64,000 bases of DNA from Acidimicrobiales bacterium (lineage in GTDB: Bacteria > Actinomycetota > Acidimicrobiia > Acidimicrobiales > Aldehydirespiratoraceae), in NCBI GenBank assembly GCA_041394245.1, contig JAWKIR010000002.1, positions 2,756,305-2,820,304 on the forward strand, read 5' to 3'. This document shows positions 30,050 to 46,924 of the stretch, piece by piece; the first letter of the stretch is position 1; every line of letters starts with the position of its first letter. The notes under the pieces were generated by a model that was not told the DNA's origin, made no database searches, and saw only the letters and a program-made list of their open reading frames with translations. The translations under genes and the position numbers were made by a program.

Positions 30050-30856
30050 TCACCCTCCCGTTCGACGAGCGACGATCTCGACGTGGGGGACGACGAAGAT
30101 CCCGTCGTCGGCCTCTGCCCAGCGCAGGAAGTCGGAGGCCATCGCCTCGAGATCGTGTTCGGTCGCCAACCCCCGGTCGAGTGCGTGGTTCCGGTAGCTC
30201 GACCGGAGGATCCGGTCGGCCCAGATCCCCGACCACCACCGACGACGCACTGGATCGGCGTAGCACCACACCGATGCGGTCGTGTCGAGCTCGACGAAAC
30301 CGGCGGCGCGTACCCAGCCCAGGAGGTGTCGACCGGCGTTGGCGTCGTGGCCGTTGGCGGCGGTCATCGCCTGGTAGACCCGCATCCACTCGGTGATGCC
30401 GGCGAAGTCCGGGGCCCAGGTCATCCCGCCGTAGTCGGCGTCGCGGACGGCGACGACGCCGCCGGGTCGGGTCACGCGGCGCATCTCCTCCAGCGCCGCC
30501 ACCGGCCGTTCGAGGTGTTGGAGCACCTGGTGCGCGTGCACGACGTCGAAGTGGCCGTCGGGGAAGTCGAGCGCGTGGATGTCGCCGGTCGTGAACTCGG
30601 CGACATCGCCATGGGCCGCGTCGGCGGCGGCGACGACGTCGGCCGACGCGTCGATGCCGGTGACGATGCTTCCCGGCGCGTGGGCGGCGATGTCGGCCGT
30701 GAGGCTCCCCGGTCCGCACCCGACGTCGAGGATTCGCGCGCCGGTGGCGAGGTGGGGCACGAGGTACCGCGCCGAGTCCGCGACGGTCCGTGCGCCGTGT
30801 GCGCGTAGGACCGAATCGTCGTGGCCGTGGGCGTAGGCGTCGAGGGCGCCGGTCAT
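30050..30856 (-). CDS. class I SAM-dependent methyltransferase
   Basis: ATG at 30856 (MTGALDAY...) with an ATGA overlap to the upstream gene. Motif I ILDVGCGPGS and post-I/II blocks. Only the C-terminal 268 aa of the 714-aa track ORF are real. Confidence 0.85.
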   Translation of the reverse strand: MTGALDAYAHGHDDSVLRAHGARTVADSARYLVPHLATGARILDVGCGPGSLTADIAAHAPGSIVTGIDASADVVAAADAAHGDVAEFTTGDIHALDFPDGHFDVVHAHQVLQHLERPVAALEEMRRVTRPGGVVAVRDADYGGMTWAPDFAGITEWMRVYQAMTAANGHDANAGRHLLGWVRAAGFVELDTTASVWCYADPVRRRWWSGIWADRILRSSYRNHALDRGLATEHDLEAMASDFLRWAEADDGIFVVPHVEIVARRTGG

Positions 30857-44645: not shown

Positions 44646-46924
44646 CCGGTGGCGTCGGCGAGTCCCCGATTCGGCGGGACGCGGCCGGGAAGGTCACCGG
44701 CGAGGCGACCTATCCCGCCGACCGGATGCCCGTCGACGCCCTCCACGCCGTCGTGGTGTTCACCGACCAACCGCATGCCCGACTGGTGTCGCTCGACATC
44801 AGCGCGGCGGAATCGGTCGACGGCGTGGTGACGGTCGTGACCGCGGCCGACGTGCCGGTCAACGAGTACGGCCTCACGATGTTCGACCAGCCGGTGCTGA
44901 TCGGTCTCGACCACACCGGGCGTTCCGACGTTCGCTGCGATGTCAGCCGCTGGGAGGCCGATCATCTCGCGGTGGTGGTCGCCGAGTCGCGCCTCGCCGC
45001 CGAAGCCGGAGCCGCGGCGATCGCTGCCGGCGCCGAGTGGGAGCCGTTGCCCATCGTCGGTGATCTCGCCGCGGCCCGTACCGACCGGGTCCTCGTCCAC
45101 GGCGAGACGGCACCGTCCAACACCTACTACGAGATGGCGATCCACAAGGGCGATCCGGAGGCGGGCTGGGCGGCCGCCGACGTGGTCATCGAGGGCACCT
45201 ACGAGTTGCCCCATCAGGAGCACGCCTATCTCCAGGTGGAGGCCGGAACCGCGTGGACCGATGGCGAGGGTCGCATCACGGTCGAGACGTCGGGTCAGTG
45301 GACGTACGAGGACCGCGAACAGATCGCCCATGCGCTCGACCTCCCCGAGGATCGGGTGCGGGTGATCTACGCCACGATCGGCGGCGCGTTCGGCGGCAAG
45401 GAGGACATGAGTCTCCAGATCGTGCTCGCCCTCGCAGCCCGCAAGCTCGGACAACTGGGCATCGACCGGCCCGTGCACTGCCGCTGGTCCCGCGAGGAAT
45501 CGATCGTCGGCCATCACAAGCGCCACCGGGCGACCGTCGAGGCGCGTCTCGGTGCCACACGAGACGGCAGGATCACCGTCGTGGAAGCCGACGTCTGGCT
45601 CGATGCCGGGGCCTACAACTACACGTCCAACAAGGTGCTCGGCAACGCCCATCTCTCGGTCGCGGGGGCCTACGAGGTGCCCAACGCCCGGATCGACAGC
45701 CGCGCCGTCTACACCCACTCGGTTCCGGGCGGTGCGTTCCGCGGCTTCGGAGGTCCGCAGGGCGGGTTCGTCGCCGAGACCCAGATGAACAAGCTCGCCG
45801 ACGCGCTGGGCATCGACCCGATCGAACTGCGTCGGCGCAACATGCTCCGGGAGGGGAGCATCGGCATCACCCAGGAACCGTTGCCCGCCGGCGTCGGGCT
45901 CCCGCAGGTGATCGAGGCCTGCGCCGAACGAGCGCCGACCGACGGCGAGCTCGATCCGGTCGCCCCGTTCTCGTCGGTCGCGTCGCTTCCCCCGCTCGCC
46001 GACGGCGATCCGAGCATCGTCCGGGGCCGCGGGTTCGCGGCCGGCATGAAGAACGTCGGCTTCAGTTTCGGGTTCCCCGAACGCTGCGAAGCCGAGGTGC
46101 ACTACCACGGCGAGCCGGGCGACGAACGGCCGACCGCGGTCGACGTCTTCCACGGCGGCGCCGAGGTCGGACAGGGCAACCATGCCGTCATCCTCCAGAT
46201 GACCGCCGACGCCGCCGGTGTCGATCTCTCGGTTGTCCGGGGCCACTTCTCCGACACGGCGACGAGTGGCGACTCGGGTTCGGCGTCGGCGTCGCGGCTG
46301 ACCTTCATGGCGGGCAACTCGGTGCTCGGCGCGGCCGAGGAGGCCGAGAAGGCGTGGCGCGACGGGCAGCGGCCCGCGATCGGGTCGTTCCGCTACACCC
46401 CGCCCCCGACCGAGGTGCTCGATCCCGTCACCGGCGCAGGCCAGCCCAACTTCTCCTACGGCTACATGGCCCAGGTCGTCGACGTCACCGTCGACACCGC
46501 AACGGGCCACATCCGCGTCGATCGGGTCGTCTCGGCCCACGACGTCGGCCGCGCCATCAACCCGGAGCTGGTGAAGGGGCAGATCGAGGGTGCCGTCGTG
46601 CAGGCCCACGGCTACGTCCTCAGCGAGAACCTCGTCGTGGCCGAGGGTCGGATCCGCAACCCGCGGCTCTCGCAGTACCTCATCCCCGGCATCGGCGACG
46701 TGCCGACCAGGGTCGAGAGTGTCATCCTCGAACTCGCCGACCCGGTCGGGCCGTGGGGCGCCCGGGGCGTCGCCGAGATGCCCTACATCACCTACGCCCC
46801 TGCGGTGATCGCCGCCGTCCACGACGCGACCGGCGTGTGGTTCGACAGCTTTCCGCTCACCCCCTCCCTCGTCCTCGCCGCCCTCCGATCTGCGTCGGCA
46901 AGCCCGTCGCCGGGCGAGGGGTAA
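44642..46924 (+). CDS. molybdopterin-binding large subunit of a xanthine dehydrogenase-family hydroxylase
   Basis: ATGA overlap; ATG at 44642 (MTGGVGESPIRRDAAGKVTG...). GGAFGGKED, FRGFGGPQ and KGQIEGA blocks. 760 aa. Confidence 0.9.
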   Translation: MTGGVGESPIRRDAAGKVTGEATYPADRMPVDALHAVVVFTDQPHARLVSLDISAAESVDGVVTVVTAADVPVNEYGLTMFDQPVLIGLDHTGRSDVRCDVSRWEADHLAVVVAESRLAAEAGAAAIAAGAEWEPLPIVGDLAAARTDRVLVHGETAPSNTYYEMAIHKGDPEAGWAAADVVIEGTYELPHQEHAYLQVEAGTAWTDGEGRITVETSGQWTYEDREQIAHALDLPEDRVRVIYATIGGAFGGKEDMSLQIVLALAARKLGQLGIDRPVHCRWSREESIVGHHKRHRATVEARLGATRDGRITVVEADVWLDAGAYNYTSNKVLGNAHLSVAGAYEVPNARIDSRAVYTHSVPGGAFRGFGGPQGGFVAETQMNKLADALGIDPIELRRRNMLREGSIGITQEPLPAGVGLPQVIEACAERAPTDGELDPVAPFSSVASLPPLADGDPSIVRGRGFAAGMKNVGFSFGFPERCEAEVHYHGEPGDERPTAVDVFHGGAEVGQGNHAVILQMTADAAGVDLSVVRGHFSDTATSGDSGSASASRLTFMAGNSVLGAAEEAEKAWRDGQRPAIGSFRYTPPPTEVLDPVTGAGQPNFSYGYMAQVVDVTVDTATGHIRVDRVVSAHDVGRAINPELVKGQIEGAVVQAHGYVLSENLVVAEGRIRNPRLSQYLIPGIGDVPTRVESVILELADPVGPWGARGVAEMPYITYAPAVIAAVHDATGVWFDSFPLTPSLVLAALRSASASPSPGEG

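Follow-up and report, generated by a model that had tools for sequence, protein, structure and literature searches.

A probable Acidimicrobiia variant of the reductive, uricase-independent purine route with shortened YgfK and SsnA proteins

The gene cluster to which ygfK, ssnA and xdhD belong was assigned biochemically in 2025 to a reductive route of urate breakdown through 2,8-dioxopurine (PMC12507026; bioRxiv 10.1101/2025.04.24.650524; PMC12990295). Urate is converted to 2,8-dioxopurine by XdhD-YgfM in E. coli and by XdhAC, a selenium-dependent enzyme without flavin adenine dinucleotide (FAD), in C. sporogenes; YgfK, with its flavin mononucleotide (FMN), Fe-S and FAD/NAD(P)H sites, reduces the ring, and SsnA opens it to give ureidomethylhydantoin or 5-ureidodihydrouracil (PMC12507026; bioRxiv 10.1101/2025.04.24.650524). 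HyuA then yields 2,3-diureidopropionate, YgeW (with YqeA) or the hydrolytic UacY, together with YgeY, strips the two ureido groups, and YgeX turns 2,3-diaminopropionate into pyruvate (PMC12507026; bioRxiv 10.1101/2025.04.24.650524). Those reports present it as an anaerobic route that depends on selenium (PMC12507026; bioRxiv 10.1101/2025.04.24.650524), and a commentary confines it to obligate or facultative anaerobes and proposes the D (R) configuration for its intermediates (PMC12990295). Here we describe a locus of an Acidimicrobiales bacterium (assembly GCA_041394245.1, contig JAWKIR010000002.1, positions 2,756,305 to 2,820,304; this stretch of 64,000 nucleotides is called the window, and positions are counted from its first letter) that probably encodes an Acidimicrobiia variant of this reductive, uricase-independent purine/urate route, with substrates deduced from the enzyme families. 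The 2,8-dioxopurine pathway itself is known; new is the remodelled Acidimicrobiia architecture with its non-orthologous replacements.

A preliminary description of this DNA had called the reference cluster enigmatic, with most reactions unassigned. That picture is outdated, the cluster having been fully assigned in 2025 (PMC12507026; bioRxiv 10.1101/2025.04.24.650524), and the assignment to a named pathway covers the reference cluster and not the gene set found here. Such a route was also said to be undescribed in an actinobacterium. This is right for the remodelled Acidimicrobiia architecture, which has not been reported, and wrong for actinobacteria in general: gut Actinobacteria with the canonical genes were reported in 2022, and the SsnA network of Li et al. 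2025 has nodes from Actinomycetota, along with a Chloroflexota variant with an F420 reductase that is given without further detail (PMC12507026).

Genes were called in the window from the frame bias of third-position GC (GC3; window G+C ∼69%) and assigned to families with Pfam and NCBIfam profiles, scored against curated cut-offs. Every gene-family call of the preliminary description was reproduced in this way. Nine plus-strand genes form the operon; they include two xanthine dehydrogenase (XDH)-type enzymes with molybdenum cofactor (Moco), two pyridoxal phosphate (PLP) enzymes and a barrel protein resembling dihydropyrimidine dehydrogenase (DPD):

32770..34032, plus strand: M20 carbamoylase, hydantoinase/carbamoylase family amidase (TIGR01879, NF006771)
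34025..35806, plus strand: short YgfK, DPD-like FMN barrel with C-terminal 2x[4Fe-4S] domain (TIGR03315, E. coli YgfK alignment)
35803..36852, plus strand: N-carbamoyl-D-amino-acid hydrolase (D-carbamoylase) of the CN-hydrolase type (match to solved D-carbamoylases)
36849..39500, plus strand: XDH1, [2Fe-2S]+Moco hydroxylase without FAD domain (Fer2_2, Ald_Xan_dh_C, MoCoBD_1, MoCoBD_2)
39473..40528 (alternative start 39497), plus strand: shortened SsnA-family amidohydrolase, 351 aa (NF005540, TIGR03314)
40525..42051, plus strand: PLP508, distinct fold-type-II PLP enzyme (PALP 38 bits)
42061..43152, plus strand: PLP363, fold-type-II PLP enzyme like Ser/Thr dehydratases/serine racemase (PALP 104 bits)
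43158..44645, plus strand: XDH2 FAD + [2Fe-2S] subunit (FAD_binding_5, CO_deh_flav_C, Fer2_2)
44642..46924, plus strand: XDH2 Moco subunit (MoCoBD_1/2; best model pucD, 474 bits, under cut-off)

These genes span 32770-46924, and neighbours overlap by 4-28 nt or sit 5-9 nt apart. The stop codon of the M20 gene (34032) lies beyond the GTG start of the YgfK-like gene (34025), an 8-nt overlap that reads GTGACTGA; ATGA start/stop overlaps occur at 35803, 36849, 40525 and 44642. The XDH1 gene, ending at 39500, overlaps the SsnA-like gene by 28 nt if the latter starts at GTG 39473, or by 4 nt (GTGA) if it starts at GTG 39497. Gaps of 9 nt (42051/42061) and 5 nt (43152/43158) separate PLP508 from PLP363 and PLP363 from the XDH2 FAD subunit. 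Shine-Dalgarno-like GGAG/AGGAG motifs precede most operon starts, and a plus-strand scan within the operon found no terminator-like site. The junctions of the tightly coupled operon are those given in the preliminary description, as is the extent of the divergent arm treated below.

The central protein of the locus is the YgfK homologue. It matches TIGR03315 with E 3e-134 over profile positions 5-395 of 1012, reaching 448 bits where the cut-off is 835. In pairwise alignment, residues 5-405 of E. coli YgfK match 34076-35266 (38% identity) and residues 898-978 match 35468-35701 (43%), while the GltD-like NAD(P)H/FAD module at residues ∼450-895 (∼445 residues) is absent. HGCPP, VKLNPTLLGY, DLLKPGGY and both CxxCxxCxxxCP motifs are kept. 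The protein is therefore homologous to YgfK (DOPOR) yet truncated, with FMN barrel and Fe-S domain only, the layout of PreA and of DPD domains IV-V. An AlphaFold2 (AF2) model based on 15 close homologues had low confidence (pLDDT 60); its top Foldseek matches, pig DPD and dihydroorotate dehydrogenase (DHODH), are supportive only. We propose that short YgfK is the 2,8-dioxopurine ring reductase of the route. Searches with YgfT and with the middle portion of E. coli YgfK revealed no PreT/GltD-like partner, either in the window or among 83 related loci.

Short SsnA is likewise reduced in size. It is ∼90 aa shorter than E. coli SsnA, having lost the N-terminal ∼55 aa and several loops, and residues 51-439 of the E. 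coli protein match it with 32% identity. Over profile positions ∼58-340 it reaches 255 bits with NF005540 (cut-off 444) and 235 with TIGR03314 (cut-off 455), at E 1e-70 to 1e-76. The HxH, HxxE, His and Asp ligands align with those of E. coli SsnA, and the motifs WWRLDRALD, HVHVAEG, HNxRSNMNNxVGY and GTDG are kept, of which only WWRLDRALD and HNxRSNMNNxVGY count as SsnA-specific. The enzyme would open the reduced purine ring at C4. The kinship with YgfK and SsnA claimed earlier is thus borne out by both sets of profile matches, the first across the N-terminal 395 positions of its model, although both proteins stay under the family cut-offs.

For the next step of the known pathway we looked for a hydantoinase by tblastn with E. 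coli HyuA, by de novo clustering of GC3-supported open reading frames (ORFs) in the 83 loci and by Pfam analysis of recurrent unassigned families, and found none; at a threshold of E≤1e-4, HyuA matched neither the window nor the ±10 kb surroundings in these loci. What emerged instead was a Bmp/PnrA ABC transporter, a YgeX-like PALP protein, alpha/beta hydrolases and an MttB-like protein. Across the 83 loci, SsnA and 8-oxoguanine deaminase are the only amidohydrolase families conserved near the module.

XDH1 is a [2Fe-2S]+Moco enzyme of the architecture ascribed to it earlier (XdhD-like), and it belongs to another family. It scores 772.6 bits over its full length with TIGR03311, the model of selenium-dependent xanthine dehydrogenase, below the curated cut-off of 830.45, and 190 bits with TIGR03313, the XdhD type. 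It lacks the XdhD-specific insertion bearing E606 and has Glu/Arg where E. coli XdhD has Gln/Gln. Taken together, the two scores, the missing insertion and the Glu/Arg pair rule out XDH1 as an XdhD orthologue. The purine-type motifs GGKE, FRGFG and GE (catalytic Glu) are present; here and in the Moco subunit of XDH2 we take them to correspond to Glu802, Arg880 and Glu1261 of bovine XDH. We propose that XDH1 acts as a 2,8-dioxopurine dehydrogenase (urate <-> 2,8-dioxopurine).

Two hydrolases appear suited to the ureido groups. The CN-hydrolase matches the solved D-carbamoylase 8I99 over its full length (E 8e-109), with 1FO6 and 1ERZ close behind (range E 1e-102 to 8e-109), and it keeps the Glu/Lys/Cys triad in the aligned motifs FPELAL, KYRKxHLPG and AICNDRRW, where CNDRRW is the substrate-carboxylate motif; on this full-length similarity and these active-site motifs we class it as a true D-carbamoylase, which would hydrolyse the 2-ureido group. 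The M20 enzyme passes the cut-offs of TIGR01879 (409 versus 204 bits) and NF006771 (423 versus 399), and its nearest solved relatives include N-carbamoyl-beta-alanine amidohydrolase, L-carbamoylases and beta-alanine synthase; its predicted substrate is the 3-(beta-)ureido group. YgeY orthology was rejected for it, the similarity being remote (E 6e-4). An alpha-ureido D-enzyme joined to a beta-ureido enzyme suits the two ureido groups of 2,3-diureidopropionate, and a D-specific enzyme is consistent with intermediates of R/D configuration, as has been proposed (PMC12990295). Neither YgeW nor YqeA has a match in the window or within ±10 kb in the 83 loci. The replacement of carbamoyltransferase and carbamate kinase by carbamoylase-type hydrolases, suggested in the preliminary description, is supported.

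The two PLP enzymes, said earlier to take the position of YgeX, are non-orthologous to it: their matches to YgeX reach only E ∼1e-4 over short stretches, and both were rejected as orthologues. By profile, PLP508 is weakly similar to cysteine synthases (E 7e-16). In a Foldseek search its AF2 model, a good one (pLDDT 81), superposes on CysK, beta-cyanoalanine synthase and CBS with TM ∼0.8 (normalised to the target). Helical extensions of ∼100 aa at each end (residues 1-100 and 410-508) are conserved and match nothing in Pfam, nor in PDB by sequence. The CysK/CBS fold is that of enzymes that catalyse beta-elimination or beta-replacement with beta-substituted alanines as substrates, a class of compounds that includes diaminopropionate and albizziin. 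From the modelled fold, PLP508 may catalyse beta-elimination on 2,3-diaminopropionate or a ureido-alanine. For PLP363, with weak PDB matches to threonine deaminase and serine racemase, we propose a deaminase or racemase role on the diamino acid.

The gene arrangement recurs far beyond chance. Scanning a single genome for each GTDB species turned up 542 stretches that code for a relative of short YgfK; of the best 80, nearly all belong to Acidimicrobiales, Ilumatobacter and Microthrix among them. Complete Acidimicrobiia genomes with the locus include OY970375.1, JAWPMS010000001.1 and CBDCGK010000004.1. Short homologues (575-603 aa) are very numerous, and the named ones come from metagenome-assembled genomes (MAGs) of Acidimicrobiales/Acidimicrobiia. 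Neighbours were counted by tblastn of the window genes in 36 species-level loci with at least 6 kb upstream and at least 9 kb downstream of short ygfK. D-carbamoylase is the most conserved (31/36), followed by XDH1 (28), PLP508 (25), and M20 and short SsnA (23 each); then come the regulator (17), PLP363 (16), 8-oxoguanine deaminase (14), the XDH2 FAD and Moco subunits (8 and 6) and the methyltransferase (3). The recurrent order is a regulator divergent from M20, short YgfK, D-carbamoylase, XDH1, short SsnA, PLP508 and PLP363, at times followed by XDH2. The methyltransferase and the XDH2 pair are not conserved parts of the module, and the 12-gene divergon of the preliminary description accordingly holds for this genome and its close relatives and not as a conserved unit. 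In a long-read MAG (L003 / L017, 12798-15430) the XDH1 gene is broken into three, probably by a frameshift error; a pseudogene is less likely.

Two other layouts were seen. A true YgeX homologue (35% identity, E 3e-54) stands directly upstream of short ygfK, at ∼1 kb from the ygfK match, in six genomes (L031, L036, L047, L048, L015, L021); L047 has a YgeY-like M20 gene ∼4 kb downstream as well. In the Ilumatobacter-type layout (L034, L035, L040, L041, L052) short ssnA is immediately upstream of short ygfK, with no carbamoylase or XDH1 nearby. Having YgeX or short ssnA directly beside it ties the YgfK of this lineage to diaminopropionate and to SsnA. In 14-18 loci the module adjoins a Bmp/PnrA-type four-gene ABC transporter (substrate-binding protein, double ATPase, two permeases), which is absent from the window; de novo ORF clustering placed it upstream of the module in L012, L026, L027, L045, L055, L059, L071, L072, L083, L084 and others. 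Transporters of this family take up purine nucleosides or bases. Within 10 kb, HyuA, YgeW, YqeA, YqeB, YqeC and MocA were found in none of the 83 loci.

A minus-strand arm of three coupled genes (30050-32704) diverges from the operon:

32705..32769, no strand: divergent intergenic region, 65 bp between start codons, presumed promoter/operator
32213..32704, minus strand: regulator, small ligand-binding domain (PF01910-like) and HTH_22 (PF13309 E 1.6e-19)
30853..32220, minus strand: 8-oxoguanine deaminase, 455 aa (NF006055)
30050..30856, minus strand: SAM-dependent methyltransferase, 268 aa (Pfam Methyltransf_11/25/31)

The deaminase gene overlaps the regulator stop by 8 nt, and the methyltransferase gene is joined to it by an ATGA overlap. 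Scanning the 65-bp region between the arms revealed no sigma-70-like consensus and no inverted repeat. In the regulator the PF01910 score (23.3 bits) is slightly under cut-off, and the homologue in L003 has both PF01910 and HTH_22 domains on record; this HTH_22 protein probably controls both arms. The deaminase, covering profile positions 14-450 of 455, passes the equivalog cut-off of NF006055 (565.1 versus 532 bits), so the earlier call of an 8-oxoguanine-deaminase-like enzyme proved correct. It would feed 8-oxoguanine into urate; in relatives its gene is divergent, as here, or lies within the operon after PLP508. The methyltransferase is probably an accessory or passenger gene. Upstream of it, L006 and L008 have a guanine-deaminase-like gene that lengthens the divergent arm (in L008 with 29% identity to E. 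coli GuaD, E 2e-41), and the window holds a GHL15-like gene at that place.

At the other end of the locus, the XDH2 FAD subunit matches the xdhA, XdhB and XdhC models, all under their cut-offs, and the Moco subunit keeps the GGKE, FRGFG and catalytic Glu motifs. The pair is proposed to oxidise hypoxanthine and xanthine to urate. A counterpart of YgfM is absent from the locus, since the FAD protein belongs to this separate, poorly conserved second XDH; in this respect the locus is not the counterpart of the ygfM-bearing module that it had been taken for.

Set beside the E. coli reductive urate cluster (xdhD-ygfM, ygfK, ssnA, hyuA, ygeW, yqeA, ygeY, ygeX; PMC12507026), the locus shares the YgfK barrel with ferredoxin domain, the catalytic motifs of SsnA, a [2Fe-2S]+Moco enzyme beside ygfK, and M20 and fold-type-II PLP enzymes for the end of the route. 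The logic of dehydroxylation, reduction, ring opening, two ureido removals and deamination would also be alike. It differs in the missing central NAD(P)H/FAD module of YgfK, in the SsnA shorter by ∼90 aa, in a Moco enzyme of TIGR03311 rather than XdhD type, and in the absence of YgfM and HyuA. A D-carbamoylase stands in for YgeW and YqeA, hence a hydrolytic step without ATP yield; the M20 enzyme is of the carbamoylase subfamily and not YgeY, two unrelated PLP enzymes replace YgeX, an HTH_22 regulator is found in place of the sigma-54 protein YgeV, and the window has no UacT/XanQ permease.

The clostridial pathway (C. sporogenes XdhAC = DOPDH, YgfK = DOPOR) resembles the locus, by profile and domains, in its FAD-less [2Fe-2S]+Moco architecture and in a separate XDH supplying urate. 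No YqeB/YqeC selenium-maturation genes lie near our locus, in contrast to that pathway, and our host has O2-dependent enzymes. The UacX/UacY variant of C. difficile has a ring reductase without NAD(P)H/FAD domain and removes the 2-ureido group hydrolytically, as we propose here; our reductase is YgfK-derived whereas UacX is PydA-like, and the hydrolase is a CN-hydrolase D-carbamoylase whereas UacY is D-aminoacylase-like. Reductive pyrimidine catabolism (PreT/PreA or DPD, dihydropyrimidinase, beta-ureidopropionase) offers the layout of short YgfK followed by a ring-opening amidohydrolase and a beta-ureido hydrolase. The locus departs from it in having no PreT-like partner nearby, in the added Moco hydroxylase, D-carbamoylase and PLP enzymes, and in an opener of SsnA type instead of dihydropyrimidinase. 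The Chloroflexota clusters with a putative F420-dependent reductase (PMC12507026) are likewise from an environmental, non-gut lineage in which SsnA is kept and the electron input for ring reduction is changed; their reductase is a luciferase-family F420 enzyme, unlike the YgfK-derived Fe-S protein in the window. The D-hydantoinase and D-carbamoylase systems of Agrobacterium and Arthrobacter have a closely related D-carbamoylase with the same active-site motifs, while our gene has no hydantoinase partner and is set between the genes of the proposed purine ring reductase and of XDH1.

These comparisons suggest the following course of reactions. From the families observed and from their gene context we infer the substrates throughout, and with them the direction of XDH1, which ureido group is cleaved first and what the two PLP enzymes do. 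Urate would be formed from 8-oxoguanine by the deaminase and from hypoxanthine or xanthine by XDH2, and XDH1 would strip its 6-oxo group to give 2,8-dioxopurine. Short YgfK would then reduce the pyrimidine ring at FMN with electrons entering through its two [4Fe-4S] clusters; lacking the NAD(P)H/FAD module that E. coli YgfK has, it would take them from a separate donor. Short SsnA would hydrolyse the reduced ring at C4, and a second hydrolysis would open the remaining hydantoin or dihydrouracil ring to 2,3-diureidopropionate, a step for which the locus has no HyuA. Since both ring openings are hydrolyses at C4, SsnA or a deaminase paralogue could in principle perform both. The D-carbamoylase would remove the 2-ureido group and the M20 carbamoylase the 3-ureido group, a fully hydrolytic removal that means no ATP gain through carbamoyl phosphate. 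PLP508 and/or PLP363 would finally convert 2,3-diaminopropionate to pyruvate and ammonia. The purine context is given by the 8-oxoguanine deaminase above its cut-off, the second purine-type XDH, the PnrA/Bmp transporters of relatives and the guanine-deaminase-like gene of L006 and L008.

Several points weigh against this reading. XDH1 (773 bits, cut-off 830), short YgfK (448, cut-off 835) and short SsnA (TIGR03314, 235 against 455) all fall under the curated cut-offs, and the Glu/Arg pair of XDH1 is that of an ordinary xanthine dehydrogenase, while E. coli XdhD, a demonstrated urate reductase, has Gln/Gln. Short SsnA is missing in 13 of the 36 well-flanked loci. One step of the known pathway is left without a candidate, as neither the window nor the 10-kb surroundings in the 83 loci yielded a hydantoinase or dihydropyrimidinase. 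The window offers no NAD(P)H-linked partner for either reductase and no urate/xanthine permease. Selenium-cofactor genes, which go with the pathway in all gut strains studied, were not seen near the locus. The support for it comes from sequence, models and literature.

Some of these points would also fit a different substrate. The main rival keeps the same enzyme logic and applies it to another N-heterocycle: a pterin or lumazine, another oxopurine or a substituted pyrimidine, with XDH1 perhaps working oxidatively, hydroxylating the substrate and passing electrons to short YgfK. We consider it unlikely, if a serious contender. The sub-threshold scores of YgfK, SsnA and XDH1 and the canonical Glu/Arg of the latter, in place of the Gln/Gln of XdhD, speak for it; an absent hydantoinase would be expected if just one ring needs opening, and two reductases without an NAD(P)H module suit a mutual exchange of electrons. 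The 8-oxoguanine deaminase family also includes isoxanthopterin deaminases, which counts on the same side, but the deaminase found here passes the cut-off for 8-oxoguanine deaminase. An alpha-D-specific hydrolase paired with a beta-type one suits a diureido acid derived from a bicyclic purine, homologues of the diaminopropionate ammonia-lyase YgeX are joined to the same short ygfK in sister genomes, and purine-type transporters and guanine-deaminase-like genes are neighbours. Moreover, the sole YgfK and SsnA characterised so far act on 2,8-dioxopurine (PMC12507026; bioRxiv 10.1101/2025.04.24.650524). It is very unlikely, in our estimate, that the neighbourhood is mixed, with a set of D- and L-type carbamoylases and PLP enzymes for hydantoin or N-carbamoyl-amino-acid utilisation merely lying beside xanthine dehydrogenases. 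D-carbamoylase and M20 carbamoylase are indeed the classic enzymes of the 'hydantoinase process', and module composition differs between genomes; against this stand the tight joining of the nine genes by start/stop overlaps or short gaps, the fact that ygfK and XDH1 flank the D-carbamoylase in 28-31 of 36 species, and the lack of a hydantoinase to accompany the carbamoylases.

Least probable is a selenate reductase, made up of the YgfK-like protein and the Moco enzyme and serving respiration or detoxification. The idea draws on the JGI name of homologues, 'putative selenate reductase', and on a 2025 paper that interpreted ygfK in Acidimicrobiia UBA5794 in this sense and inferred anaerobic selenate respiration from it (PMC12008989). 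Purified YgfK reduces 2,8-dioxopurine, and selenate is neither needed nor stimulatory (bioRxiv 10.1101/2025.04.24.650524); on this published biochemistry we reject the reading. The protein in the window is, besides, a DPD-like FMN barrel in an operon of amidohydrolases, carbamoylases and PLP enzymes. The selenate-reductase annotation of Acidimicrobiia ygfK is thus doubtful, and correcting the label matters as it has been used to infer selenate respiration in Acidimicrobiia. In source databases the short YgfK homologues P0013-P0120 are named 'putative selenate reductase' or 'glutamate synthase'.

Returning to the reductive purine route, a bolder form of it can be imagined, which we think improbable as a whole: the route of aerobic Acidimicrobiia would be self-contained, selenium-independent and redox-balanced through Fe-S electron exchange, with one enzyme for both C4 hydrolyses and PLP508 as a new lyase. 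XDH1 and short YgfK would swap electrons directly, via ferredoxin or with XDH2, and the four electrons from the conversion of hypoxanthine to urate would pay for the step from urate to dihydro-2,8-dioxopurine, which needs four. Short SsnA or a paralogue of the 8-oxoguanine deaminase would do both C4 hydrolyses, making a hydantoinase unnecessary, and PLP508 would be a lyase for beta-amino- or beta-ureido-alanine.

The rest of the window bears on the host. It encodes a cytochrome P450 (8791-10023, minus strand), a fatty-acid hydroxylase (20077-21081, minus strand), an RPE65-type carotenoid oxygenase (54279-55724, plus strand) and a luciferase-like monooxygenase (55764-57182, minus strand). These are O2-dependent families, which indicates that the host uses O2, and judging by these genes it is probably aerobic; the first three bear out the suggestion of an aerobic host in the preliminary description. 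No uricase-pathway enzyme, XdhC or SelD was found among the window genes scanned, and the selenium-cofactor trait (SelD, YqeB, YqeC) was seen neither in the 64-kb window nor within 10 kb in the 83 loci. When all 22 proteins of the E. coli K-12 cluster were searched against the window, YgeW, YgeX, YgeY, HyuA, YqeA, YqeB, YqeC, MocA and the NCS2 permeases had no match at E≤1e-4. The window scans and these searches agree with the earlier statement that uricase-pathway and selenium genes are lacking in the window. The picture of a hydrolytic, probably aerobic rebuild of the route thus largely survives, with corrections to the state of knowledge, to XdhD orthology and to the extent of the conserved module.

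Other genes of the window stand apart. Directly 3' of the operon lies an AbiEi_4 / DUF559-like (antitoxin/endonuclease-like) gene (46992-47957, plus strand), which probably plays no part in the pathway. At 20832-25851 (plus strand) a GlcD-like FAD-linked oxidase, a CCG/4Fe-4S protein and an HI0933-like flavoprotein follow one another, in synteny with the close relative L001, and may form a glycolate/lactate-oxidase-like unit. A fusion of Ada Zn-binding domain, AraC HTH and AlkA glycosylase (57808-59466, plus strand) is a DNA repair regulator/enzyme of the adaptive-response type.

A probable environmental actinobacterial version with swapped enzymes suggests that the 2,8-dioxopurine route is not confined to anaerobes, and its ecological range may be wider and extend to nitrogen recycling from purines in sea and soil. 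The variant can be regarded as a natural experiment on electron supply to an FAD-less Moco enzyme, both reductases here being without NAD(P)H modules. It also bears on the order of ureido cleavage, on the dispensability of the hydantoinase and on the debated stereochemistry of the route, where a D-specific carbamoylase supports D-configured intermediates. With PLP508 it points to at least one uncharacterised enzyme family with a defined substrate space. Should the redox-balanced form of the route be true, purine mineralisation independent of O2 and of uricase would be common in abundant marine, soil and freshwater actinobacteria.

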